Source of the DNA: Bdellovibrionales bacterium
Lineage (GTDB): Bacteria; Bdellovibrionota; Bdellovibrionia; Bdellovibrionales; UBA1609
Direction: 5' to 3'
Length of the DNA stretch: 64,000 bases
Assembly (NCBI GenBank): GCA_965261545.1
Contig: CBDHDF010000010.1
Location: 160,001 to 224,000 of the forward strand
Below, one piece after another: positions 8,872 through 28,329 of the stretch. Every line of letters begins with the position of its first letter. Position 1 is the stretch's first letter. A program made the translations under genes and the position numbers. Below the pieces are notes generated by a model, which worked only from the letters and a program-made list of their open reading frames with translations, made no database searches and was not told where the DNA came from.

Positions 8872-11016
8872 TTCCTGTCCAGGGAAGAAAGTTAAGTAGT
8901 TTTAAGTATTTACATGCCTTCCCTTTAGATTTTATGCTTTAAAATGGAGTCCATCAAACATAATCCGTGTAAATTCAGTTACTTACATAAAACGGAAAAA
9001 TAAAATAAGTTCCCCCCCCCCTCTCTTGACGAACCTTTCACAGCCCCTCCCTTTCAGTGACTTATGTGGCTATCAACTGGTTACTTGATATGAGAGGAAG
9101 AGTTGGATCAACCTGTGTTTCCACCGTGGTGATTTCAAACCTCCTTCAGGGAAATAACATTACGTTGCGCATCAACTTCAAAAAATACTTGACGTGTTTT
9201 TTCAGAGAAATAATTTTTGATATTTTATTCTTCATTTATTTTTTATGTAGGTTTTAGGAGGCGTGGGAACCTCTCTATGAGGTAGAATTCTTATCCATGT
9301 TCTCCGAGAACCTCTCTGATTTTTTTCTTCTTAAAAGACATCCTTGCTCACTTTTTTCCCTCAAAAAAACGTATGTTAATATAAAAATTAAAGAGAAACT
9401 TTCACCAAAGGGGGGACTATGCGCCATTTGAAGAAGACACAGTTGGGACTCTTTTCCCAATATCCTAACCACCAACTCAGTACAGAATTGCAGCAAATTA
9501 ATAACATCATTGATCGCCATCCAGAGTTTGCCCATATGGTTCATGAAGACCTTGTTAAAGAAAAGAAAGATTCTGGTGATATTGGTATGACATCGGAGCA
9601 AGTTCTCAAGGTGGCTATTCTTAAATCCATAAGAGGTCTTTCCTATCGTGCGTTAGCCTTTAATCTTGTCGATTCAGTATCCACCAGAGCTTTTCTGGGC
9701 CTTGAATTGGAAGAAAATTACGCTCACTCCACCTTACAGGACTTGATTGTTCAAATAAGTGAAGAAACTTGGGGAATTATTAGCGCCTCTTTAGTTTCAG
9801 ATGCAAGAGATCAAAAGATTGAGCCGTGTAAGAAAATGAGATTGGACAGTACAGTGACGAAATCAAATATTCATCATCCAACGGATGCATCGCTTTTATA
9901 TGACTGCATAAGAGTTACAGAAAGAGAATTTAAAAAAGTTCGTAAAAATGTCATGAAAGATTTTTGGCGACTTATTTCAAGAGAAGATCTTAAGAGAGCA
10001 AAAACCTTTCTTTACAAAATTAATAATTCCAAAAATGATGCGGAAAGACTACCTTGCTATAAGGAGCTTTTAAAAATCGCTACCAAATTGAACAAAGGAT
10101 TACCTGATACCATCAGAAAGATAAAAAAAGAACAAAAATGTGTGAAGATGAATGCTTTGAAAAAGAGTCTAAAACAGTTAGAAAATGTTGCCTTCTACCT
10201 GGAAAAAATCATCTTTCAAACTCAAAAAAGAGTTATTGAGGGGAAAAAAGTATCTTCTGAAAAAAAGGTCCTATCCATCTTTGAACCGCATACAGACATT
10301 ATTGTAAAGGGGCAAAGAGAAGTCGAGTTTGGGCATAAAATCTTTCTGACCTCAGGGCAAAGCAACATGATTTTAGATTGTCAGATCCCTGATGGCAACC
10401 CCGCAGACTCTGATATGTTTTTAAAAGTTATGAATTCAGTGACACAAACCTATGGGGCTTGCCCTGTAAAAGTAAGTGCAGATGGTGGGTTTGCTTCAAA
10501 AGAAAATCTTGAAGAGGCCAAAGAGATGGGGGCTAAAGATGTTTGCTTCCCAGAAAAAAAAGGAATGAAAATATTAAAGATGGTTAAAAGTGCTTGGGTC
10601 TTTAAAAATCTTCTCAATTGGAGAGCCGGAATAGAGGCTGTTATTTCATTCCTTAAGAGATGTTTTGGTATGAGAGTTGCTTACTGGAAAGGGCATGATG
10701 GTTTTAAGAGGTATGTAAAGAATGCCGTTTGTGCCTATAATTTTGTTGTCTTGGCAAGACATGAATTATCAACTGTCACCTAAATTTATCCATTAGGAAT
10801 AACAGCAATGGACCAGGTCGAAGGTGCTAAAATCTTCCAAAGGTAGGGGTGCGTCTTCAAATCGAAAAAACTAGGGCGCAAGTCGCTTAAAGACCTTTTT
10901 CCCCTTAATCTGTAGAGTTTGTGTGGCAAATCTCCAACTCTCACTCCCCCATTGAGGCATTGGGAGGCTCAATGGGGAGTGTCAGAGAACAAAAAATGGG
11001 CCTTTCTGGACAGAAA
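8872..11016 (+). mobile_element. ISNCY/IS5-like DDE insertion sequence, copy 1
   Basis: Imperfect TIRs TTCCTGTCCAG..CTGGACAGAAA, flanked by CTAAGTAG. The empty site is visible at 7761-7768. Confidence 0.85.
9419..10783 (+). CDS. ISNCY-type DDE transposase
   Basis: RLDSTV..SNIHHPTD, SIFEPHT, EFGHK, ADGGF and RAGIEA.IS.LKR motifs. Confidence 0.85.
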   Translation: MRHLKKTQLGLFSQYPNHQLSTELQQINNIIDRHPEFAHMVHEDLVKEKKDSGDIGMTSEQVLKVAILKSIRGLSYRALAFNLVDSVSTRAFLGLELEENYAHSTLQDLIVQISEETWGIISASLVSDARDQKIEPCKKMRLDSTVTKSNIHHPTDASLLYDCIRVTEREFKKVRKNVMKDFWRLISREDLKRAKTFLYKINNSKNDAERLPCYKELLKIATKLNKGLPDTIRKIKKEQKCVKMNALKKSLKQLENVAFYLEKIIFQTQKRVIEGKKVSSEKKVLSIFEPHTDIIVKGQREVEFGHKIFLTSGQSNMILDCQIPDGNPADSDMFLKVMNSVTQTYGACPVKVSADGGFASKENLEEAKEMGAKDVCFPEKKGMKILKMVKSAWVFKNLLNWRAGIEAVISFLKRCFGMRVAYWKGHDGFKRYVKNAVCAYNFVVLARHELSTVT

Positions 11017-11024
11017 CTAAGTAG

Positions 11025-13170
11025 TTCCTGTCCAGGGAAGAAAGTTAAGTAGTTTTAAGTATTTACATGCCTTCCCTTTAGATTTTATGCTTTAAAATGG
11101 AGTCCATCAAACATAATCCGTGTAAATTCAGTTACTTACATAAAACGGAAAAATAAAATAAGTTCCCCCCCCCCCTCTCTTGACGAACCTTTCACAGCCC
11201 CTCCCTTTCAGTGACTTATGTGGCTATCAACTGGTTACTTGATATGAGAGGAAGAGTTGGATCAACCTGTGTTTCCACCGTGGTGATTTCAAACCTCCTT
11301 CAGGGAAATAACATTACGTTGCGCATCAACTTCAAAAAATACTTGACGTGTTTTTTCAGAGAAATAATTTTTGATATTTTATTCTTCATTTATTTTTTAT
11401 GTAGGTTTTAGGAGGCGTGGGAACCTCTCTATGAGGTAGAATTCTTATCCATGTTCTCCGAGAACCTCTCTGATTTTTTTCTTCTTAAAAGACATCCTTG
11501 CTCACTTTTTTCCCTCAAAAAAACGTATGTTAATATAAAAATTAAAGAGAAACTTTCACCAAAGGGGGGACTATGCGCCATTTGAAGAAGACACAGTTGG
11601 GACTCTTTTCCCAATATCCTAACCACCAACTCAGTACAGAATTGCAGCAAATTAATAACATCATTGATCGCCATCCAGAGTTTGCCCATATGGTTCATGA
11701 AGACCTTGTTAAAGAAAAGAAAGATTCTGGTGATATTGGTATGACATCGGAGCAAGTTCTCAAGGTGGCTATTCTTAAATCCATAAGAGGTCTTTCCTAT
11801 CGTGCGTTAGCCTTTAATCTTGTCGATTCAGTATCCACCAGAGCTTTTCTGGGCCTTGAATTGGAAGAAAATTACGCTCACTCCACCTTACAGGACTTGA
11901 TTGTTCAAATAAGTGAAGAAACTTGGGGAATTATTAGCGCCTCTTTAGTTTCAGATGCAAGAGATCAAAAGATTGAGCCGTGTAAGAAAATGAGATTGGA
12001 CAGTACAGTGACGAAATCAAATATTCATCATCCAACGGATGCATCGCTTTTATATGACTGCATAAGAGTTACAGAAAGAGAATTTAAAAAAGTTCGTAAA
12101 AATGTCATGAAAGATTTTTGGCGACTTATTTCAAGAGAAGATCTTAAGAGAGCAAAAACCTTGCTTTACAAAATTAATAATTCCAAAAATGATGCGGAAA
12201 GACTACCTTGCTATAAGGAGCTTTTAAAAATCGCTACCAAATTGAACAAAGGATTACCTGATACCATCAGAAAGATAAAAAAAGAACAAAAATGTGTGAA
12301 GATGAATGCTTTGAAAAAGAGTCTAAAACAGTTAGAAAATGTTGCCTTCTACCTGGAAAAAATCATCTTTCAAACTCAAAAAAGAGTTATTGAGGGGAAA
12401 AAAGTATCTTCTGAAAAAAAGGTCCTATCCATCTTTGAACCGCATACAGACATTATTGTAAAGGGGCAAAGAGAAGTCGAGTTTGGGCATAAAATCTTTC
12501 TGACCTCAGGGCAAAGCAACATGATTTTAGATTGTCAGATCCCTGATGGCAACCCCGCAGACTCTGATATGTTTTTAAAAGTTATGAATTCAGTGACACA
12601 AACCTATGGGGCTTGCCCTGTAAAAGTAAGTGCAGATGGTGGGTTTGCTTCAAAAGAAAATCTTGAAGAGGCCAAAGAGATGGGGGCTAAAGATGTTTGC
12701 TTCCCAGAAAAAAAAGGAATGAAAATATTAAAGATGGTTAAAAGTGCTTGGGTCTTTAAAAATCTTCTCAATTGGAGAGCCGGAATAGAGGCTGTTATTT
12801 CATTCCTTAAGAGATGTTTTGGTATGAGAGTTGCTTACTGGAAAGGGCATGATGGTTTTAAGAGGTATGTAAAGAATGCCGTTTGTGCCTATAATTTTGT
12901 TGTCTTGGCAAGACATGAATTATCAACTGTCACCTAAATTTATCCATTAGGAATAACAGCAATGGACCAGGTCGAAGGTGCTAAAATCTTCCAAAGGTAG
13001 GGGTGCGTCTTCAAATCGAAAAAACTAGGGCGCAAGTCGCTTAAAGACCTTTTTCCCCTTAATCTGTAGAGTTTGTGTGGCAAATCTCCAACTCTCACTC
13101 CCCCATTGAGGCATTGGGAGGCTCAATGGGGAGTGTCAGAGAACAAAAAATGGGCCTTTCTGGACAGAAA
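11025..13170 (+). mobile_element. ISNCY/IS5-like insertion sequence, copy 2 (tandem)
   Basis: Nearly identical to copy 1 (F>L change, poly-C length). CTAAGTAG at 11017-11024 and 13171-13178. Confidence 0.85.
11573..12937 (+). CDS. ISNCY-type DDE transposase
   Basis: Same as 9419-10783 except one residue. Confidence 0.85.
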   Translation: MRHLKKTQLGLFSQYPNHQLSTELQQINNIIDRHPEFAHMVHEDLVKEKKDSGDIGMTSEQVLKVAILKSIRGLSYRALAFNLVDSVSTRAFLGLELEENYAHSTLQDLIVQISEETWGIISASLVSDARDQKIEPCKKMRLDSTVTKSNIHHPTDASLLYDCIRVTEREFKKVRKNVMKDFWRLISREDLKRAKTLLYKINNSKNDAERLPCYKELLKIATKLNKGLPDTIRKIKKEQKCVKMNALKKSLKQLENVAFYLEKIIFQTQKRVIEGKKVSSEKKVLSIFEPHTDIIVKGQREVEFGHKIFLTSGQSNMILDCQIPDGNPADSDMFLKVMNSVTQTYGACPVKVSADGGFASKENLEEAKEMGAKDVCFPEKKGMKILKMVKSAWVFKNLLNWRAGIEAVISFLKRCFGMRVAYWKGHDGFKRYVKNAVCAYNFVVLARHELSTVT

Positions 13171-13184
13171 CTAAGTAGCCCATA

Positions 13185-14693
13185 GTGGCTTGCAACTCAT
13201 TGGAGGCTATCTTTAACAACGCTCCCAAATACCAACGACACCGCCCTGAAAAGACTCTCCTTTACAAATTGGTGCAAGAAAATCTACTCACTTTCTACCG
13301 GCACATAGAAAATGAGCATGAAAATGGCCTTCCCCAGTTCGTTAAAAAAGAATTCGATGAGTTTCTCAAGTGTGGAATTCTTGCCCATGGTTTCTTGAGA
13401 ACCCAGTGTGAATCTTGCCACCATGAAAGGCTTGTGGCCTTTAGCTGCAAGCGTCGAGGCTTCTGTCCAAGCTGCGGCGCAAGAAGAATGGCTGAAAGTG
13501 CAGCCCACTTAGTTGATGAAGTTTTTCCCCAAAAACCCCTACGACAATGGGTCCTTAGCTTTCCTTTTCAAATAAGATTCCTCTTTGCCAAAAATCCAAA
13601 GGTCATGGGAGAGGTCTTAGCCATCGTTCATCGAGCCATTTCCACCTACCTGATCAAAAAAGCTGGTCTCACCAAAAAATCAGGAGCCAAGGCGGGTTCT
13701 GTTACCTTCATTCAACGCTTTGGCGGAAGCATCAATCTCAATATTCATTTCCATATGATGTATTTGGATGGAGTGTACACATTCCCCGAAGGTAAACCTC
13801 ATTTTCACCCCATAACTCCACCCACCCAAAGTGAAATGGATCACATCTTGGTGAGCATAGCTCATAGAGTGGTCAAGCACCTAGAAAAAAAGGGACTCAT
13901 CCTAAGGGATGAAACAGGGCAAGAGTATCTGGCTATGGAAGCCTCTGACAGTATGGACCAAGTCCACGGATCATCAGTCACCTATAGAATAGCTCTCGGT
14001 CCTCACAAAGGGAAAAAAGCACTGACTCTTCACACTGTATCAGCAAGAGGTAAAGATTTTAACAGTGAATTTCTCGCCAAATATTCTGGCTTTAGCCTCC
14101 ATGGAGGAGTCGCATGTAGAGCCCATGAGAAAAAAAAGCGAGAGAGGGTATGCCGGTATATTTCAAGACCCAGCCTCAGTGAAGAAAGGCTCTCATTAAA
14201 TACCAGGGGCCAAGTTGTCTATAAACTCAAAACTGCCTATGACAATGGAACCACTCATATCGTTCTGGACCCCCTTGATTTCCTTAGCCGTCTTACCTCC
14301 CTCATCCCTCGACCACGAGTGAATCTCACAAGATTCCACGGAGTTTTCGCGCCCAATTTCAAATATCGATCCTCAATCGTCCCTCAATTCCAAATCGAAG
14401 CCTCCATCGATGAAGACTCAAGGGAAGATGCCTTAGATTTGGAAGATTCAGAGCCAAGGCCAAACAAGAAAAAATCTTCAGGAATGACCTGGGCTCAAAG
14501 GCTCAGGAGGGTTTTTGACATAGACATTGAAACTTGCCATGAGTGTGGTGGAAAAGTAAAAGTCATTTCTTCCATTGAAGACCCTCAGGTCATTGAAAAA
14601 ATTCTTACTCATCTCGGCATCACCTCACAACCTCCAAGCCTATGGCCTCCTAGAGGCCCACCACAAAGTGAGAGCTTCGATTCATTTTCTTAA
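13185..14693 (+). CDS. IS91-family/ISCR rolling-circle (HUH) transposase
   Basis: Zn domain (CESC..SCKRRGFCPSCG), NIHFH HUH motif, RVCRYISRP catalytic Tyr, C-terminal CxxCGG..RGPP. Confidence 0.93.
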   Translation: MACNSLEAIFNNAPKYQRHRPEKTLLYKLVQENLLTFYRHIENEHENGLPQFVKKEFDEFLKCGILAHGFLRTQCESCHHERLVAFSCKRRGFCPSCGARRMAESAAHLVDEVFPQKPLRQWVLSFPFQIRFLFAKNPKVMGEVLAIVHRAISTYLIKKAGLTKKSGAKAGSVTFIQRFGGSINLNIHFHMMYLDGVYTFPEGKPHFHPITPPTQSEMDHILVSIAHRVVKHLEKKGLILRDETGQEYLAMEASDSMDQVHGSSVTYRIALGPHKGKKALTLHTVSARGKDFNSEFLAKYSGFSLHGGVACRAHEKKKRERVCRYISRPSLSEERLSLNTRGQVVYKLKTAYDNGTTHIVLDPLDFLSRLTSLIPRPRVNLTRFHGVFAPNFKYRSSIVPQFQIEASIDEDSREDALDLEDSEPRPNKKKSSGMTWAQRLRRVFDIDIETCHECGGKVKVISSIEDPQVIEKILTHLGITSQPPSLWPPRGPPQSESFDSFS

Positions 14694-14936: not shown

Positions 14937-16296
14937 ACTCCTTGCCCTCTTTCTGGATTTCTTTGTGACAGGAGCTTACAAAGCCCATAGCTCTTCTGAG
15001 ATTTTCAATGGTCCCACCCTGAAAAAGCTCCTCAATGAAGTTTTCAAGCTCTTTACAAATCATACTTGCTTGAATGAGAATGTTCTGGGGAGTGGCCTCC
15101 TTGTAGGCGCGACTGGGCTCCGGGAGGTGTTCGTTTTTGGTGATGTACTCTCCGAGTTTACCTTTGGTCCTCTTGTGGCGAGCGAGGAGCTGTTTTTGAA
15201 AGTAAATCTCCACACTCTCCACTCCAATTTTTACATCTACATACTCCCCTCGGTGCTGAAACGGAGCCGAGTAGAAGTTGGATTCAACGCTCACATGACA
15301 GTCTTGGTGGAGTTTTTTCTTCTCCCAACGTCCCCACCGGTAGGGAAAAGAAGGCAAGGGTTTTAAAGTTTTTACCTCTCGTTGAAATTTTTCATTGCGA
15401 GAGACCTTAAATCTTGTGTGAGGGCGAGCATTTATCTTCTCGCACACCTCCCTTAAAGCCTTATTAATTTGATCCAGACTGGTGAAGGTCTCTCGTCTGT
15501 ACATGAACCTGAGGGCCCTTGTAACGAGCTTCACGGCATTCTCAGTAAGGCTTTTATCCTGGGGACGACGAACTCGAGCGGGAACAGCCACCGTGTCATA
15601 GTGTTCCAAAAGCTCTTGGTAGGATTTATTCAACTCTGGATCATACAAATGGGGTGTGTTCACTCCAGTCTTTAAATTATCAGGAACAACCACTCTCGGA
15701 ACCCCACCGTAATATTCAAACATCAGAACGTGAGCGTGAAGAAAATCTTCACTAGATTCGCTCAAAGAGCCATAAGCAAAAATACGCTGAGAGAAACATA
15801 GATTTGAGCAAAATATATGGGCCTTATGAATATTAAGGTCTTCATCGATCCACTCTGGCTGAAACCCTGCGTAATCAACCTCAACTTGGTGGCCTGGCTG
15901 AAAATCACGCAAGGTAATAATCCTTTTGCCAGCTTTTGGAAATTGCTTATGAAACTCCCTCGTAAACTGGGGGTAGCTAATGACCTTCAGAAATTTTTCC
16001 TCCCAAACGTCACTTAAACAATGCCTATCCTCAATCTCCTTCTCAATAATCTTCCAATCTATACCGTAAGACCAAGGGGGAATTTCTCTTTGGGTCTTCC
16101 AATCCTTGGGGTCTGTTAAAAGACCACGTCTTATCTTTCTAAGAGTCTTGGTGCAGCATTTCATGCGGCGACTGATTTCTCGGTCGGGAATATTTGCCTT
16201 TATTAATGATTTTATTTTTGTGTAACGCTCATGATCCATCTTTGTTCTCATTTCGACCTCCTTGGTTAAAGATTGGAGGTCTTTATAGAACATCAA
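14935..16296 (-). pseudogene. istA: IS21-family transposase IstA, C-terminally truncated, istB absent
   Basis: PGHQVEVDY, GGVP..VVPDNLK, PQDKS.TE and H..FKVSR motifs. Ends abruptly at the ISCR end. Confidence 0.88.
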
Positions 16297-16855
16297 TGAC
16301 GCTATGCTAAGGGGAATCAGTCATGCCAATCAGTGCGGGCAATGCCATGGTTCGCCGGGCGAACTGAGATAAGATAGGGGGTTAGAGTCCCCCGAGAGGA
16401 AGGTCAACCGACCACTTCTCTCCCCAAGCCGTGCGCGGTCGGCCGTGAGGCCGAAGCGATGTATCGGTAGGGGTGTGTGTGGGCCAAATAATTGAGCGTC
16501 GAAAATGCCGAACTCTGGAGTGCGGAGGCTGTCATGGTAGCCGAACGCAACATACCCACCAGCGCTATGGTGAGTTGGTGGGTAACTCCACGGCGTCGTA
16601 GAAACTGGCACATACATGAATCTTATCTCGGGACCTCGGGAGGTCTTTATTTAACCCCGTCATGTGCGACGGGCGACATGGGAAAGGAGGTAACCGTAAC
16701 CCATGAACGAAATAAAGAAATCGGATCCACTCATAGTAGCGATGAAGAGGACGAACAAAGGGCCTACAAGCCCAGCGGAGTCCTTGGAGCGAAGGGGTGG
16801 AACTGAAGGGAACTCAATCCGTCAAAGCATCTGCCGAACACAGAGTTGGGAAAAG

Positions 16856-17067
16856 GTGTCACAGGCGACGGAGCGAGTCCGTATAGCAGCAAAGAGAAAG
16901 GATGGTAAGCTCACTTGCTTGCTTCACCATGTATCTGTGGAAGCCCTCCACTTGGCTTACCTCTATTTGAATAGGGGAGCCAGTGCGGGAGTGGACCATT
17001 TAACATGGAAGGAGTATGGCGAGAACCTCGTGCAAAACCTGTTCGATTTACATCGTCGGGTCCACAC
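16856..17067 (+). pseudogene. ltrA: Group II intron RT/maturase, N-terminal part
   Basis: SQATERVR..LLHH..A.GVD.LTW.EY..DLHRRVH. Interrupted at the AC core 17066-17067. Confidence 0.85.
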
Positions 17068-18682
17068 TACTCCCCGGACACAATGGCAAACTTTTGGAGG
17101 TTGGCACAACGTGTCGAACTACAATTTCACTTGCCTTAATGTTCACCTCAACCTCCTTCACCAGTAGCCTTACAATCTCCTTTTTTTGCTCAAAACTCAA
17201 TACCTTTAAATTGGCACTCACTTTTTTTTGGAATTCTTGGAGTTGATCTACAAGCTGTAGTTGTTGTCCTTCTTGCCTTTGCTCATACTCTAAAGATTGC
17301 TTTTCATTTTCAAGTTGCTTTATTTTTCCTCTTATTTTTTTTAATCGTGACTCTATTTCTGATAGATTTAGAGTTCCATTTTGATAAAGATCCAAGAGAC
17401 GTTCCTTTTCATGTGTTATTTGACGAATCTCCTGAGCCTTTTTTACAATTAATTTTTCCAATGATTGTTGTTCACCTTTTTGCTCATGAATTCTACTTGT
17501 ATACTCATCTATAACTGTCTGAGGATTTTCAAGTAATTTAACTGTTTGTTCCCAAACTAAGTCATCTAAAACTTCAACTCTTACGGGATGAGATGAGCAA
17601 ACTCTACCTTTAGCTGGCCACCTATAACCATCTTGTCCCATGCAGCGATAATAACAAAGCTTATACCTTGAGTGAGAAGCAGGTTTGCCATAGATCGAAT
17701 AACCACACTCTTTGCATCGTAAAAGACCACTTAACAAATACTCATATTTTTTATTATTCCGAGAGGAAAGTTTTTTGTTAGCTTCCAATTGGCTGGACGC
17801 ATCTTGAAAAGTTTTTGAAGAAATTATAGATGGAACGGGAATATATATCCAATCCTTTTTATTTCGATTGGAAGAACTTGATTTATGTTTTTTTGGATAA
17901 AAATTATTGTCTCTTGCGAACTTGGTTGGACGCAACCTTTCTACCTTGATAGTCTTTCTAAAAGCAGCTTGTCCATAATAAGCGGGATTTTTAAGCATAC
18001 ACAAGATAGTTGAACGCCCCCAAATACCTTGTTGTCTTCTAGTAGGCACCCCCCTTATATTTAATTCCTTTGCAATTGCTCTAATACTTAGTTTGTTTCG
18101 GCAATACATTTGAAAAATATTTTTAACAACTTTAGACTCTTCTGGATGGATTTCATATCGTGCGTCAGCGGAGTCTGTTTTCAGAATATATATATAACCA
18201 TAGGGGGCTCCACATAAAACGCTAACAAAGCCCTTAGAAGCCTTTTGAAGTTTACCCCTTCGACTTCTTTCCATAATTTTTTCTCTTTCATATTCTGAAA
18301 TGACTCCTTGTATTTGTAGCAAAAGCTGATCTTCGGGTGAATTTGTAATATCTCTATTAGAAAAAATAATTTCAACACCTAGCCTCTGAAATTCTTCAAT
18401 TAGAATCAATTGATGGGCATATTTACGAGCTAATCTGTCTGGACATAACACAAGTACCTTTGTAACCTCCCCAGAAAAAGCTTTGTCGCGAAGAGAGTCT
18501 AAAGCAGGACGAACAAGGGTGGCGCCACTCACACCATTATCCATAAATATAAGATCCTCCTCTACACAAAAATTGTGTTCCTTAGCGAAATCGTGAAGAC
18601 TAGAAATCTGTGAATCAATGGTTCCCTCTTGAGCTTGTTTATCTGAGGACACTCGACAATAAAGAGCTACTGATGTTTCCAT
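17048..18682 (-). CDS. Large serine recombinase (resolvase + recombinase + Zn ribbon + coiled coil)
   Basis: YCRVSS, DRLAR, E.ER..I.ER, PYGY and LRCKECG..YYRC motifs. GGAGG RBS. Confidence 0.93.
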   Translation of the reverse strand: METSVALYCRVSSDKQAQEGTIDSQISSLHDFAKEHNFCVEEDLIFMDNGVSGATLVRPALDSLRDKAFSGEVTKVLVLCPDRLARKYAHQLILIEEFQRLGVEIIFSNRDITNSPEDQLLLQIQGVISEYEREKIMERSRRGKLQKASKGFVSVLCGAPYGYIYILKTDSADARYEIHPEESKVVKNIFQMYCRNKLSIRAIAKELNIRGVPTRRQQGIWGRSTILCMLKNPAYYGQAAFRKTIKVERLRPTKFARDNNFYPKKHKSSSSNRNKKDWIYIPVPSIISSKTFQDASSQLEANKKLSSRNNKKYEYLLSGLLRCKECGYSIYGKPASHSRYKLCYYRCMGQDGYRWPAKGRVCSSHPVRVEVLDDLVWEQTVKLLENPQTVIDEYTSRIHEQKGEQQSLEKLIVKKAQEIRQITHEKERLLDLYQNGTLNLSEIESRLKKIRGKIKQLENEKQSLEYEQRQEGQQLQLVDQLQEFQKKVSANLKVLSFEQKKEIVRLLVKEVEVNIKASEIVVRHVVPTSKSLPLCPGSSVDPTM

Positions 18683-19007
18683 TTTTAACCTCCATTATTT
18701 TCTGTTGTTTTACTTTCTGCTTTAATTGTTTCTTTATTTTTGGAACAACAACTTCGTATGTCTGTTGAATCCGTGTGGTTTGGTCGCTTTGATAGACACT
18801 TTTTAGCTGAGCTGTCCATGGATTTTGATGTTTTGTTTGGTGGGCCATTATCATTCCTTTGACTATGGTTCGAAGCTAAATGGGAAGAATCCTCAGGTGG
18901 ATGCCAACGATAGTGAGCATATTTACGACCACTTGCATAAAGTGAATGATTATATATATTTATGGAAATTTCAATGGAAAAGTTGTCTATTGTGTCCGAG
19001 GAGTAAC
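17066..19007 (-). mobile_element. Minimal large-serine-recombinase element integrated in the RT gene
   Basis: 28-bp imperfect inverted repeats (17068-17095 and 18978-19005, 4 mismatches), each abutting a duplicated AC dinucleotide. Confidence 0.88.
18639..18854 (-). CDS. Small basic protein upstream of the recombinase, possible directionality factor
   Basis: AAGGA RBS, overlaps the recombinase start, only other gene in the element. Confidence 0.5.
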   Translation of the reverse strand: MIMAHQTKHQNPWTAQLKSVYQSDQTTRIQQTYEVVVPKIKKQLKQKVKQQKIMEVKNGNISSSLLSSVLR

Positions 19008-20127
19008 GGGTGCTTACAAAGGGCAACCTGTCTTGCGGGTAGAAATACCCAAGTCAGACGGGGGCACAAGACCCTTGGGTGTCCTGGCCTTGGAGGACAA
19101 GATTGTCCAGAAGGCCGTTGTAGACAGCATCCTCTCTCCCATCTACGAGGAACATTTCCTCGGTTATAGCTACGGATTCCGTCCAGGGCGTGGAGCGCAT
19201 AATGCGTTGGATGCTCTGGCTTACGGAATAGAGCGTAGAAAGATCAGCTACATATTGGATGCGGATATAAAATCCTACTTCGATAGCGTGGATAGAAAGA
19301 CTCTAATTCGCTTTCTAAAACACCTCATCGGAGATGAGAGACTCATTCGTCTCTTTGAAAAGTGGCTCAAGTGCGGAGTGCTATCTCAAGGCGTCTTAGA
19401 AGACACAGGGAGAGGGACCGTTCAAGGTTCAAATATTTCCCCTATCTTCGCCAACATATATTTACATTATGTGTTGGATTTATGGATGCAGAAATGGCGC
19501 AAGGACCATGCCACAGGGGACATGATATTTGTTCGCTACGCCGATGACTTTGTCGTAGGCTTTCAATACAAGGGGGAAGCTGAACGCTTCCTCAATGATC
19601 TGAAGCGCAGGCTTAAGGAGTTTTCTCTAGAAATACATCCGGGGAAAACTCGCCTCATAGAGTTCGGTCGATTTGCAAATGCAAATTGCCGCCGACGAGG
19701 TCTTGGTCACTCCGAGACTTTTGATTTCTTAGGATTCACTCACTTTTGTGTGCGCACGAGGAAAGGAGGCTTTAGGATAGGGCGTAAACCCATATCCAAG
19801 AGAGTCTGCCGGACCTTACAGCACCTGAAGCTGAGTCTGAGAAAACGAGTCTACACGAGGGACCTAGCGGAATGTGCAAAGTGGTTGGGTTTGGTCATCA
19901 AAGGCTGGCTCAATTATTTTGCGGTTCCAGGAAGTACGGTGTACCTACGAAAATTTATTTGCGCAATCAGGAGTGCTTGGATGAAAGCCATCCGACGACG
20001 CTCACAGCGTGGACGGAGATTCTCGTGGAAGAGGTTGGATAGAATGATTCGTCTATTCTGGCCTCGTATATCCATACGCCACCCGTGGCCAACAGATAGG
20101 TTCGCTATGCGGTACCACCTGAAGTAG
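19006..20127 (+). pseudogene. ltrA: Group II intron RT/maturase, C-terminal part (no endonuclease domain)
   Basis: IPK..G.TRPLG, SYGFRPGR, DADIK.YFD, QGS.ISP, RYADDF, FDFLGF, GW.NYF and terminal HPWP motifs. Confidence 0.92.
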
Positions 20128-20199
20128 GAGCCGGATGCTTTAACGAGCACGTCCGGATCTGTGCGGGGGGTGCGTGGCAACACGCATTCCTACCGTAAC

Positions 20200-20360
20200 C
20201 AACTGGTGCGGGCAATGCCATGCAACTGGTGAGGGTAATGCCATGCAACTGGTGCGGGCAATGCCATGCAACTGGTGAGGGTAATGCCATGCAACTGGTG
20301 CGGGTAATGCCATGCAATCGGTGCGGGTAATACCATGCAACTGGTGAGGGCAATGCCATG
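20200..20360. repeat. Seven tandem 23-bp repeats CAACTGGTG(C/A)GGG(C/T)AATGCCATG, eighth unit at 16327-16349
   Basis: Counted directly. No spacers. Lies adjacent to the IS21 TGT terminus. Confidence 0.93.
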
Positions 20361-20725
20361 CAATTTTACAATACTATCAGTTTAAGAAGAATCTACCCAC
20401 AAGATTGACTCTGCAAGTGCTTTGTATTGAACTTTTAAGGGATTGATGAAAATTTTAAGGCCTTAAACCGACAGTGTCGAGCTCAACCTATGACTAAATG
20501 CTGATTGAAGAGGGCACAAATTGACGCTGTGGGTATATAATCTACAGTATATCGTTAGCACACCCTTGATTGAAGTGAATCAGCATATGTCCAATATCTC
20601 GGGTTATAGACACCACCTCCTTTTCAAAAATTCTTAGGGTAGTATCAGTGGTGTCCTTCATGTATATCTGAGTGGCAACACACTGTACGAACTATGACAA
20701 TGGAGCCACCTAATCATTCTGGACT

Positions 20726-21550: not shown

Positions 21551-22714
21551 TTAGGGCTTTCCCTTAAAGTTACTCATACTCAAAACTCTGCCACTTGTAA
21601 TGCTATCCATCTGGGGCATGACATCAAGAACATCTGTTGCACCTTTGACTTCAACCCCTGCAAGCCTGACATAAATCTGAAAGGTCTTGATATCTCTCCA
21701 GCCACCGATTTTCATAACGGTGGCCTGATTGACTCCAGAGGCCAGCATGTGAGTGGCAAAGCAAGCTCTTAGTGAATGAAAGACGACATTGCTTTCAATG
21801 CCCAAGTCTTTCAAATACTGCCGCAGTATCTTACCAGCTTGACCATTCCTCCAAGCATAATGCCTTTCAAGAACAAGGTCTTCTGGAGTGGCGTTGTCCT
21901 TCCTAAGTTCCAAGATGACCGCTTTTAGGTCATTTGAAATAGGAACAGATCGCCAGTACCCAGCCTTCGTGCTTTTGATCGTGCGGCGAGCATCATTATA
22001 GGATTTTGATACGGTTATGATTCCTTTTTCGAGGTCAATGTCCTTCCACTGAAGGGCCATTAATTCTCCGCTTCTCATACCCGTACAAATAGCAAAAGCC
22101 CATGTGGGATACCAAGGGTTGTTGCTTGTTTTAGCCTGCTTAAGAAGCACCCTAAGCTCATCTTTTGTGAGAATCTTAGGGACCCTTTCTTCCTTAGTTC
22201 CTACAGTCAAACCTTCAGTGGGGCTTGAGTGAACACCTAAAGCGTATTTCTCCTCAATCGCCCATCTAAACACAACATTGACGGAAGATTTGATACTCCT
22301 TAAAAGACCAGTTCCAGCTCCCTGAGCCTTAGCTGAGTCTAAAGCCTGCCTTCCATCACCCTTGGTTAAATCAGAAACCCTACATTTCCACCAGATTTGT
22401 GTGTAATTTCTTAATCTGTTGACATGGGCTTGCACGATGGAGCGATCTAAGTATTTATCCCCAAGGTGTCCCGTCCGGGTTTTAATTTCCCATCGGTCCA
22501 CAATCTCACCCCAAGTGAGACCACGGCCTTCAAGTTTTGCCACTTCCTCAACAACGCTCTTAAAGAGCTTTTTTTCAAGCTTTAAGGCTTCTTTCAAAGT
22601 TGGAATGTTTTTCCTACTTCTCTGTAGCCTTAAAGTTGGACTTGCCTTCCCTCGTGCTTCAACATGAACACGAAAGAACTTTACTTCATTTTTCTTATAA
22701 CTACTTATGGCCAT
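21551..22714 (-). CDS. Tyrosine integrase, copy 2
   Basis: Protein identical to copy 1. 21372-22947 duplicates 1-1577. Confidence 0.93.
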   Translation of the reverse strand: MAISSYKKNEVKFFRVHVEARGKASPTLRLQRSRKNIPTLKEALKLEKKLFKSVVEEVAKLEGRGLTWGEIVDRWEIKTRTGHLGDKYLDRSIVQAHVNRLRNYTQIWWKCRVSDLTKGDGRQALDSAKAQGAGTGLLRSIKSSVNVVFRWAIEEKYALGVHSSPTEGLTVGTKEERVPKILTKDELRVLLKQAKTSNNPWYPTWAFAICTGMRSGELMALQWKDIDLEKGIITVSKSYNDARRTIKSTKAGYWRSVPISNDLKAVILELRKDNATPEDLVLERHYAWRNGQAGKILRQYLKDLGIESNVVFHSLRACFATHMLASGVNQATVMKIGGWRDIKTFQIYVRLAGVEVKGATDVLDVMPQMDSITSGRVLSMSNFKGKP

Positions 22715-22978
22715 TATAAACCTCCTTAAATGCTGAGGTTTCAATAAGGACGCAAAGCTTATCTTTTCTGAAGTAAAATTTCCCTCGAAACTGCCTTGCT
22801 CTTAGAAGTCCTCTATGAGCGAGAATCCTAATCGCATTGGCACTTTTCCGAAGGTATTAAGCAGCTTCTTCTGTTGTTAACCAAACTAAATTGTCAAAGA
22901 GCATATCAGAGTCGCACATTTTGTGATGAACACTCTGACCACTGCCACACCTTTCGTCCTGACAGCTATCTATAGTCA
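22714..22978 (-). pseudogene. Excisionase pseudogene, copy 2
   Basis: Same TAA lesion as copy 1. 5' end diverged, boundary approximate. Confidence 0.7.
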
Positions 22979-23018: not shown

Positions 23019-24907
23019 GAGCCTGTAAACTATTTTGTGTAACTGCCGAATCATATTAGGATGAACTATCATCCTGAAAGGAGAAGGCAGAATGGATATC
23101 AAGACAATAGGCAAGGAACTAGCGAAGAACGTCAAGACCCAAAAGGATTTATCCGACATAACGGGTCAACTGATGAAGGTTGTTTTAGAGACGGCCCTTA
23201 ATGCGGAAATGGACGATCACCTAGGTTATGAGAGGCATGAGAAGTCTGAGACCCGCAAATCCAACACTCGCAATGGTTACAGTAGAAAGACCATAAAGGG
23301 AGAGAAAGGCGAGGTGGAGCTTCAGGTCCCCCGTGACCGAAGTGCCTCCTTTGAACCTCAAGTCATTCCCAAGGGTAAGACTCGTCTTGAGGGCTTTGAA
23401 GACAGTATCCTGACCCTCTATGCGAGGGGAATGACGACCAGGGATATTCAAGGAGCTATCAAAGACCTCTACCATGGTGCAGAGATATCCCACTCAGTGA
23501 TAGCCAACGTGACGGATGCTGTTATTGATGAAGTTACGGCTTGGCAGAACCGCCCCTTGGATAGCACTTACCCTATCGTATTTTTGGACTGTATCGTGGT
23601 GAAGGTCCATCAAGACAAGAGAGTTATTAATAAGGCGATTTACCTAGCTCTTGGTATTACAGAGGAGGGTCAGAAAGACTTGTTGGGCCTATGGATTTCT
23701 GAAAATGAGGGTTCAAAGTTTTGGTTGAGTGTTTTGACTGAGCTGCAAAATCGAGGGTTGAAAGATGTATTTATATTTTCTGTAGATGGTCTTACAGGTT
23801 TTCCTCAAGCCATTTCAGCGGCTTTTCCCAAGTCTAAAGTGCAACTGTGCATTGTCCATATGGTCCGCAATTCCCTTCGCTATGTTCCTTCCAAGGATAT
23901 GAAAGCTGTCGCCCAAGACCTCAAGTCCATTTATGGCTCTACGACTCTGACAGAAGCTGAAAAGGCCCTTGAGGAATTTTGTACCAAGTGGTCTTCAAAG
24001 TATCCTAATATTGAAAAGTCTTGGCGTAGGAATTGGGACAATCTCATCACTATTTTCGATTATCCGGATGAAATCAGAAAGATTTTTTATACCACAAACG
24101 CCATAGAGTCGTTAAATAGCGTGATCCGCAAGGCGATCAGAAATCGTAAGATATTTCCCAGTGATCGGTCGGCTTTAAAAGTTGTATATTTAGCGATAAA
24201 AATGGCCTCTAAGCGATGGACACGACCATTACACAACTGGAAGCCAGCCATGAACAGGTTTGCCATTGAATACGGTGACCGTTTTGACAACTAAGTTTTT
24301 TAATAAGGTCCACCACCTGCCTTATAAGGGGGCTTAAAAGCCCCTCTAAGGCGTTGACAGAAGTACTGGAATACCGAGACTATGGTTAGGGTAATATAGT
24401 ATGGGAACCTAAATACATGCCCTCTTGGTGCAGATTTGGGTTCCCATTTTTTTTCATATTTCATCCCAATTCTGGTATTTCTCGAATATCCTAAGTTAAA
24501 AAAAATAAAAAAAAGGGGGTAATATAGTATGGGAACCTAAACACATGAACCCTTTGATGAGATTGGAATTTCCATTTTTTTGAGAGAGCCATTGCTGATT
24601 TTTTTTCAACCAAGATGATAATTATTTATTTGAGTTCTTTCCAGTTCTGATATGATCCCATTACGGCTCCATAATACAATCAAAAGTCCAGAGTAACTAA
24701 AGAGGCCAATTATATAGACCAGCGAAGATGTCCACCTCCCCATTAACTTATAATGCATTGTGACTGACAAAATCGCTTGAAGGAAAAAATGTCAATTATA
24801 CATTGACGAATAATATGGGACTGTGCTTTTTACCAGGAGTGGAGCCACATAAGTGGCTTTAAGATTTAAGAAAAAAATTGCAGTTACACAATTATTTTTA
24901 CAGTCCC
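23019..24907 (+). mobile_element. IS256-family insertion sequence with a long 3' non-coding region
   Basis: TIRs GAGCCTGTAAA..TTTACAGTCCC. 8-bp TSD TCCTAAGA at 23011-23018 and 24908-24915. Confidence 0.92.
23092..24294 (+). CDS. IS256-family transposase
   Basis: RNGY, VPRDR..FEP, FLDC, DGL.GF, QLCIVH..RN and TTNAIES motifs. Confidence 0.95.
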   Translation: MDIKTIGKELAKNVKTQKDLSDITGQLMKVVLETALNAEMDDHLGYERHEKSETRKSNTRNGYSRKTIKGEKGEVELQVPRDRSASFEPQVIPKGKTRLEGFEDSILTLYARGMTTRDIQGAIKDLYHGAEISHSVIANVTDAVIDEVTAWQNRPLDSTYPIVFLDCIVVKVHQDKRVINKAIYLALGITEEGQKDLLGLWISENEGSKFWLSVLTELQNRGLKDVFIFSVDGLTGFPQAISAAFPKSKVQLCIVHMVRNSLRYVPSKDMKAVAQDLKSIYGSTTLTEAEKALEEFCTKWSSKYPNIEKSWRRNWDNLITIFDYPDEIRKIFYTTNAIESLNSVIRKAIRNRKIFPSDRSALKVVYLAIKMASKRWTRPLHNWKPAMNRFAIEYGDRFDN

Positions 24908-26903: not shown

Positions 26904-28067
26904 TTAGGGCTTTTCCTTAAAGTTACTCATACTCAAAACTCTGCCACTTGTAATGCTATCCATCTGGGGCATGACATCAAGAACATCTGTTGCACCTTTG
27001 ACTTCAACCCCTGCAAGCCTGACATAAATCTGAAAGGTCTTGATATCTCTCCAGCCACCGATTTTCATAACGGTGGCCTGATTGACTCCAGAGGCCAGCA
27101 TGTGAGTGGCAAAGCAAGCTCTTAGTGAATGAAAGACGACATTGCTTTCAATGCCCAAGTCTTTCAAATACTGCCGCAGTATCTTACCAGCTTGACCATT
27201 CCTCCAAGCATAATGCCTTTCAAGAACAAGGTCTTCTGGAGTGGCGTTGTCCTTCCTAAGTTCCAAGATGACCGCTTTTAGGTCATTTGAAATAGGAACA
27301 GATCGCCAGTACCCAGCCTTAGTGCTTTTGATCGTGCGGCGAGCATCATTATAGGATTTTGATACGGTTATGATTCCTTTTTCGAGGTCAATGTCCTTCC
27401 ACTGAAGGGCCATTAATTCTCCGCTTCTCATACCCGTACAAATAGCAAAAGCCCATGTGGGATACCAAGGGTTGTTGCTTGTTTTAGCCTGCTTAAGAAG
27501 CACCCTAAGCTCATCTTTTGTGAGAATCTTAGGGACCCTTTCTTCCTTAGTTCCTACAGTCAAACCTTCAGTGGGGCTTGAGTGAACACCTAAAGCGTAT
27601 TTCTCCTCAATCGCCCATCTAAACACAACATTGACGGAAGATTTGATACTCCTTAAAAGACCAGTTCCAGCTCCCTGAGCCTTAGCTGAGTCTAAAACCT
27701 GCCTTCCATCACCCTTGGTTAAATCAGAAACCCTACATTTCCACCAGATTTGTGTGTAATTTCTTAATCTGTTGACATGGGCTTGCACGATGGAGCGATC
27801 TAAGTATTTATCCCCAAGGTGTCCCGTCCGGGTTTTAATTTCCCATCGGTCCACAATCTCACCCCAAGTGAGACCACGGCCTTCAAGTTTTGCCACTTCC
27901 TCAACAACGCTCTTAAAGAGCTTTTTTTCAAGCTTTAAGGCTTCTTTCAAAGTTGGAATGTTTTTCCTACTTCTCTGTAGCCTTAAAGTTGGACTTGCCT
28001 TCCCTCGTGCTTCAACATGAACACGAAAGAACTTTACTTCATTTTTCTTATAACTACTTATGGCCAT
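26904..28067 (-). CDS. Tyrosine integrase, copy 3
   Basis: Two amino-acid differences from copies 1 and 2. Confidence 0.93.
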   Translation of the reverse strand: MAISSYKKNEVKFFRVHVEARGKASPTLRLQRSRKNIPTLKEALKLEKKLFKSVVEEVAKLEGRGLTWGEIVDRWEIKTRTGHLGDKYLDRSIVQAHVNRLRNYTQIWWKCRVSDLTKGDGRQVLDSAKAQGAGTGLLRSIKSSVNVVFRWAIEEKYALGVHSSPTEGLTVGTKEERVPKILTKDELRVLLKQAKTSNNPWYPTWAFAICTGMRSGELMALQWKDIDLEKGIITVSKSYNDARRTIKSTKAGYWRSVPISNDLKAVILELRKDNATPEDLVLERHYAWRNGQAGKILRQYLKDLGIESNVVFHSLRACFATHMLASGVNQATVMKIGGWRDIKTFQIYVRLAGVEVKGATDVLDVMPQMDSITSGRVLSMSNFKEKP

Positions 28068-28329
28068 TATAAACCTCCTTAAATGCTGAGGTTTCAATAA
28101 GGACGCAAAGCTTATCTTTTCTGAAGTAAAATTTCCCTCGAAACTGCCTTGCTCTTAGAAGTTCTCTATGAGCGAGAATCCTAATCGCATTGGCACTTTT
28201 CCGAAGGTATTAAGCAGCTTCTTCTGTTGTTAACCAAACTAAATTGTCAAAGAGCATATCAGAGTTGCAATATTTCATGACTACACCCTGACCCCTGCCG
28301 TCTTTCTGCTGACAGTTGTCTGTAACCAT
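28067..28329 (-). pseudogene. Excisionase pseudogene, copy 3
   Basis: Same in-frame TAA as copies 1 and 2. Confidence 0.75.

Follow-up and report, generated by a model that had tools for sequence, protein, structure and literature searches.

A class E group II intron placed in the tandem end repeats of an IS21 element in a Bdellovibrionales genome

The 64,000-nucleotide stretch of a Bdellovibrionales bacterium genome analysed here (the window: positions 160,001 to 224,000 of contig CBDHDF010000010.1, assembly GCA_965261545.1) carries a class E group II intron (16350-20199, forward strand) within the array of 23-bp repeats at the left end of an IS21-family insertion sequence (IS). We consider it very probable that the three exon-binding sites of the intron (EBS1, EBS2 and EBS3) match the motif GGCA-N2-GCCATG/C, in which the slash marks the insertion point, and that each unit of the left end is a retrohoming site. 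The window copy itself is a dead composite, with its reverse transcriptase (RT) gene split by a recombinase element and its IS21 cut by an IS91-family element.

The initial annotation, made from the sequence of the window, placed the intron exactly between two repeat units, and this holds. Unit 1, the innermost repeat and the 5' exon (16327-16349, forward), ends in GCCATG at 16349, and unit 2 begins at 20200. Units 2-8 (20200-20360, forward), all empty as predicted homing sites, continue the 23-bp array up to a 10-bp left-end tip, CAATTTTACA (20361-20370, forward), which is common to all left ends and has TGT at its terminus on the minus strand. Removal of the intron leaves an empty array like those of seven other IS21 copies in the genome. 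The reading that all units end in (G/A)CCATG was borne out (RCCATG); eight units are indeed present, although they are contiguous only with the intron removed (1+7).

The window copy of the intron spans 3850 bases, of which 1910 nt are the intron proper and the remainder the inserted recombinase element. The intron ends read GTTCGCC and CCGTAAC (RNA 5' GUUCG, a variant of GUGYG, and 3' AAC), and it is supported by an Rfam match, by the other copies and by the RT phylogeny. Domain I corresponds to the match to group-II-D1D4-6 (RF02005, 154 bits), and the terminal segment 20126-20199 (forward; fold z -4.3) folds into domains V and VI, with a bulged A close to its 3' end. The intron is antisense to istA, lies outside it and points toward the IS tip. 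The RT/maturase open reading frame (ORF) is present in two pieces, codons 1-122 (16703-17067, forward), which match an ORF of 494 aa that is intact in four other copies, and a 3' piece (19006-20127, forward) that includes YADD and lacks an endonuclease domain (Pfam RVT_1 and a weak GIIM match only). The split by the recombinase element means that this copy cannot move by its own genes. No match to a sigma-70 consensus that could serve as an outward promoter for the intron was identified within 15700-16800.

The exon-binding sites were assigned using 80 related loci from metagenomes and one viral locus. Of these, 60 had enough upstream DNA for alignment, and 41, together with the query, had a recognisable 5' end (others were dropped). 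The proposal had been staked beforehand on the loop of the hairpin at 16527-16542 being EBS1. The hairpin, noted for a loop complementary to GCCATG, folds as claimed and is the loop of the Rfam domain I match. Its hexamer CAUGGU (16533-16538, forward) forms a mean of 5.54 of six pairs with exon positions -1 to -6 across 42 introns, compared with 3.28 +/- 0.13 for shuffled exons, and at least five pairs in 37/42 rows. An unsupervised scan of position pairs ranks the six EBS1-IBS1 pairs (IBS, intron-binding site) first. From the six-pair covariation and this ranking we conclude that CAUGGU is EBS1. EBS2 is assigned to UGCC (16506-16509, forward), just 3' of a GAAA anchor, a position that covaries in 37 relatives; the segment covaries with exon -8 to -12 (3.11 pairs vs 1.90 +/- 0.17 shuffled, with the anchor in 37/40 rows). 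In the window intron, UGCC would form four pairs with GGCA units and one wobble with GGTA units, and the EBS2-IBS2 pairing is thus probable from the sequence. EBS3 is G at 16598 (forward), in a column that is Watson-Crick complementary to exon +1 in 43/46 rows (expected 0.34), and C stands at +1 of every array unit. A placement of EBS3 at a GAAGG motif was rejected in favour of 16598. Both IBS2 (GGCA, -12 to -9) and IBS1 (GCCATG, -6 to -1) lie within unit 1.

The genome holds nine intron 5' ends and twelve 3' ends. Eight of the nine 5' ends follow an array unit, namely unit 1 in five cases and, in one case each, unit 2, unit 5 of 7 and the last unit. Occupancy of unit 1, of unit 5 of 7 and of the last unit is secure, which bears out the expectation that other copies would be found in other units, with the addition of two sites unrelated to the array. 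The suggestion of up to eight homing sites stands in that several units are occupied; use is uneven, with the first and last dominating (5/6 if unit 1 counts twice, p ~0.009, in a small and non-independent sample). Two IS21 copies hold two introns each, and seven left ends are empty while seven have an intron or an intron relic. At three left ends an intron directly precedes the 10-bp tip, with three different flanks that each have their own matching duplication. The insertion after unit 5 restores a normal 7-unit array.

Two IS haplotypes are occupied. The IS21 body and the array in the window are both of haplotype B, on both sides of the intron, and among the other unit-1 insertions haplotype A accounts for three and a mixed body for one, which argues for separate events. 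Apart from the recombinase scar, the intron copies differ at only seven columns, indicating recent spread. In run X5, from a second study, the IS21 body is covered and most of the intron is not (a small share, and in contigs only).

Outside the array, an intron at C10:1024449 interrupts a host ORF, and another at C2:419568 lies within a multicopy element that has 17 other copies and that we take to be ISL3-like. With at least these two off-array copies, targeting is relaxed. The copy in the host ORF (G000:C10:1022540-1024449) is an intact intron, antisense to the ORF and about 5 kb from a double-intron IS21; no empty allele of this ORF is present in the assembly. Evidence for use of the right end comes only from 3' relics that precede the right-end tip CAATTGTACA, two of them identical and a third, older one less certain; they suggest that the intron occasionally inserts there. 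The older relic (G000:C10:843330-843399), 86% identical to the intron 3' end, precedes a tip that resembles the right end and may stem from an earlier wave of this intron.

We assign the intron to class E based on its RT, which is 51% identical to that of S.me.I4 (class E, plasmid pRmeGR4b) and 33-36% identical to those of RmInt1, RmInt2 and class C. It groups with S.me.I4 (clade support 98/94), apart from classes C and D. S.me.I4 is the only class E reference in the tree, and its label was taken, by replicon, from PMC5894124. The lack of a DNA endonuclease domain and the EBS1, EBS2 and EBS3 pairings agree with this assignment. Class E introns are also marked by a 5-nt zeta' loop and by the position of alpha', which caps a stem-loop in DId3 (PMC3753933). 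Known class E introns have a GUGYG 5' end (GTGCG in most of the relatives), whereas this intron has GUUCG, and the use of IS21 repeats as a target is also a difference.

Among the 80 metagenome loci, istB is present in three, and in two of these the intron lies in IS21 right-end repeats. In L081 it is beside istB and points outward, with EBS1 CGGAGC facing GCTCCG; in L091, again at the right end beside istB, the intron is flanked by two AAAACCGGCCA repeats with a spacing of 23 bp and points inward. The window intron, L081 and L091 fall in three separate class E subclades and have different EBS1 sequences, each matching its own repeat. Three IS21-end introns in three subclades imply that the habit arose more than once, and the sequences point to convergent targeting of IS21 ends by class E introns. 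Two further loci were not counted as end insertions: in L092 the intron is downstream of istB and apparently outside the end repeats, and in L230 it is in the start of istB. Other class E relatives lie in a short palindromic element (L026, L027) or in other group II introns (L031, L032). No close relative of the intron was found at the DNA level in 60 related genomes, and a scan of genome contigs recovered only two distant RTs. The best-matching proteins are 60-70% identical and lack DNA context. Junctions like that of L081 were found in no viral contigs and in no plasmids, save for a weak repeat match.

Several observations weigh against homing into each array unit. The insertion after unit 2 is insecure, as a pair of introns after unit 1 and the last unit that had lost the intervening units would look identical, and the unit-1 copies may share ancestry through IS transposition or gene conversion. 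Splicing and retrohoming activity are themselves deduced from the multicopy evidence and so are only probable for this intron. EBS2 contributes only four pairs here, the two off-array sites pair with EBS1 at only four or five of six positions, and IS21-end targeting is rare, having been found in 2/80 metagenome loci. Lastly, eight of nine is approximately what the supply of good sites predicts, with no sign of IS recognition beyond sequence: 66 of the 90 well-matched empty sites (by our own threshold) are array units (65 and one 22-bp variant). Since array units dominate the good sites, the share of insertions they hold needs no additional IS-specific cue.

The first two of these points could be extended to the whole data set if one or two unit-1 insertions had given rise to the rest through IS21 transposition, gene conversion and array slippage, the other positions being products of rearrangement. 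Unit 1 holds five of the eight array 5' ends, the range of 5 to 10 units per array shows that slippage happens, the unit-2 copy is explicable by deletion, and the genome is heavily rearranged. We nevertheless regard this account as very unlikely. The tip insertions have only 10 bp of the IS on their 3' side, yet are found with three flanks and matching duplications, the unit-5 copy leaves a 7-unit array of normal form, and the two off-array insertions show an intron that moves by itself.

A second possibility, which we would entertain without favouring, is that specificity is relaxed (a core such as YRTG/C) and that the array is merely the richest source of sites, with no evolved link to IS21. 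The weak pairing at the off-array sites and the array's share of about three quarters of good sites fit this view, as does the range of other elements targeted by class E relatives, including other introns and istB. It is compatible with the main mechanism and differs from it only on the question of adaptation. However, RCCATG occurs 5723 times in the genome (both strands), yet the roughly 80 array units hold eight of the nine 5' ends, which implies that EBS2, EBS3 or protein contacts matter, and three separate class E lineages are found in IS21 ends.

The IS21 in the window retains a truncated istA (14939-16296, reverse; Pfam Mu-transpos_C_2 and rve) that has lost its last ~69 codons, along with istB. 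The cut, at 14938/14939, is due to insertion of an IS91-family element, and other IS21 copies align only from 14939 on. The transposase of the truncating element, which is multicopy, is at 13185-14693 (forward; Pfam Y2_Tnp and Zn_Tnp_IS91). Thus, the idea that the array offers homing sites on a mobile carrier is upheld for the matching sites and fails for mobility in this copy, in which both istA and the RT are disrupted. Intact copies (L001) encode an IstA (DDE transposase) of 522 aa followed by an IstB (ATPase) of 250 aa, with homologues annotated as IS21 transposase. Other features of the family are also present, i.e., TG...CA ends (TGT...ACA), reiterated repeats of about 23 bp, and target duplications, which are 6-8 bp long and adjoin the left-end tip in whole copies. 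By analogy with IS5376, IstA probably binds the array repeats.

Left-end arrays in the seven empty copies have 5-10 units and the right end has about two degenerate units. In 32 IS21 loci from other genomes we identified one array of ~7 uniform units, one of ~5 and 30 with ~4 or fewer (none detected in four of these 30), in a survey in which some loci are cut by contig ends and degenerate units are undercounted. The view that eight units is long for an IS21 end is therefore correct relative to most relatives, although such length is not unique: L202 (G260:C1:1777948-1778086) has ~7 uniform 24-bp units at its left end. A long, uniform array could have evolved in the IS as a defence against the intron: as a decoy strip it would leave two outer repeats unoccupied and would allow introns to be purged by deletion between units. 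In length and uniformity the arrays of this genome exceed those of most relatives, and the internal units are under-occupied, within the limits of sample given above. We consider this unlikely, given that no related RT was found in G260 despite its array, that more units provide more targets, and that three copies were struck at the tip.

We propose that homing into the array operates as follows. The array units would supply most of the good intron sites in the genome, and the intron ribonucleoprotein would reverse-splice into the istA-antisense strand, the one leading toward the IS tip, with retrohoming primed at replication forks. Introns without an endonuclease domain reverse-splice into DNA and use primers at replication forks (PMC4424553, PMC4615759). 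GC skew is scrambled genome-wide, a sign of heavy rearrangement, and is uninformative regarding a lagging-strand bias. An insertion after unit 1 leaves istAB and all outer repeats intact, and one after unit 5 still has two or more repeats on its outer side, so that the IS could carry the intron as a passenger in either case; an insertion after the last unit leaves only the 10-bp tip and would immobilise the IS. Internal insertions may be purged by deletion between the flanking units, via slippage. Such loss may account for the excess of insertions at the two extreme units, first and last, and agrees with the variation in array length. Preferential recognition, or shielding by IstA, would also explain the bias. 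A broader scheme is possible and we put it forward tentatively. It combines a recurring class E niche reached by retuning of EBS1, a dynamic system of array and intron, and a loaded, RT-less intron of 3.85 kb that homes in trans and carries its own parasite.

Homing into IS end repeats is already known. The class D (IIB3) intron RmInt2 of Sinorhizobium meliloti GR4 has its homing sites in the ISRm17 inverted repeats (PMC4615759, PMC5894124), and its authors point out that this multiplies the target sites (PMC4615759). The intron described here has the same type of placement by EBS pairing in IS end repeats (8/9 5' ends). The two systems are also alike in lacking the endonuclease, in having several sites per IS and relaxed EBS2 pairing, in recent multicopy spread, and in that two introns can occupy one place. 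RmInt2, as described, has one site per inverted repeat (two in all), whereas here, for an intron whose RT is 32-35% identical to those of RmInt1 and RmInt2, there are 5-10 tandem repeats of the transposase-binding type, on one strand of IS21, and the present intron has itself been invaded by a recombinase element. Introns within IS elements are common (PMC3522654). RmInt1 in ISRm2011-2 and E.c.I4 in IS3-family transposases (PMC5894124, PMC3522654) likewise keep homing sites in supply by targeting multicopy IS, but each at one position within a transposase gene, whereas the present intron uses the end repeats and leaves the coding region undisturbed. This genome has a very high IS load, with one 1.4-kb element in dozens of full copies.

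For the IS itself, the closest comparison is IS5376 (repeats L1/L2 and R1/R2), in which IstA needs two complete repeats, spaced 23 bp, for integration (PMC10122671). Shared features are the istA-istB genes, terminal CA, direct repeats spaced 23 bp and a short target duplication. The ends of IS5376 and IS21 are described as usually having at least two repeats, compared with 5-10 near-identical units on the left and about two degenerate ones on the right here, and the target duplication of IS5376 is 5 bp as opposed to 6-8 bp. We found no paper on IS21 end repeats as intron targets in the open-licence literature. What is new, and well supported, is that the target sites form a tandem strip, that several of them are occupied, that first and last units predominate, and that class E introns show convergence.

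The element in the RT gene (17068-19005, reverse) encodes a large serine recombinase and consists of 1938 bp plus an AC duplication, with imperfect 28-bp terminal inverted repeats. The recombinase ORF (18682-17048, reverse; 544 aa; Pfam Resolvase, Recombinase and Zn_ribbon_recom) runs past the element end. Insertion, at codon 122 of the RT gene, is precise, with a 2-bp AC core; no excised circular form was observed. The element-free allele is represented by four genomic copies and by a joint skipping 1940 nt in contigs from three runs of a single sample, possibly the one from which the genome came. Six recombinase-loaded introns occur at three kinds of site, reflecting either repeated integration at the same spot or movement of the loaded intron with RT from intact copies. 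The association of the element with one single-nucleotide polymorphism of the intron (4/5 vs 1/4, p=0.17) leans toward movement without supporting it.

Related elements in this genome, with recombinase proteins 95% identical, are inserted in other group II RTs at the GTPQG motif. So are four of the eight plasmid relatives examined, from 781 matching records (the loci of the family include L008-L011, L215-L217 and L222). Relative to the 95%-identical elements at GTPQG, the window variant differs in its end bases, has AC as its core and occupies another site, RT codon 122; a recent switch of target is possible. At G000:C2:409424-409443 the left end of an AC-core element is preceded by 18 bases of the tip of another multicopy element, and these 18 bases end in AC. 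This arrangement suggests that a second attB was used and that two copies of the element afterwards underwent a deletion between them. Our search found no paper on recombinases that target intron RTs.

Other repeats were identified in the window. Two nearly identical tandem genes (9419-10783 and 11573-12937) encode 454-aa DDE_Tnp_1 transposases. Near-identical phage-integrase genes, multicopy in the genome, are located 5353 bp apart (21551-22744 and 26904-28097), with an IS256-family element (23092-24294) between them. Two 65-nt copies (24389-24453 and 24517-24581), 128 bp apart, each end in a hairpin-like stretch and a T run.

The tandem arrangement means that a single IS end could present 5-10 sites, to which IS transposition and array expansion would add more, providing the intron with an escape from target saturation. 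If the proposed mechanism is correct, the position struck would predict the fate of the host IS (passenger, dead or purged), and this link would offer a clean way to test whether group II introns keep the spread of IS elements under control or hitch-hike on it. For class E introns, the study in PMC3753933 tested only splicing in vitro and left the role of EBS2 in homing open. The array and its introns may therefore serve as a natural substrate for studies of class E intron mobility.

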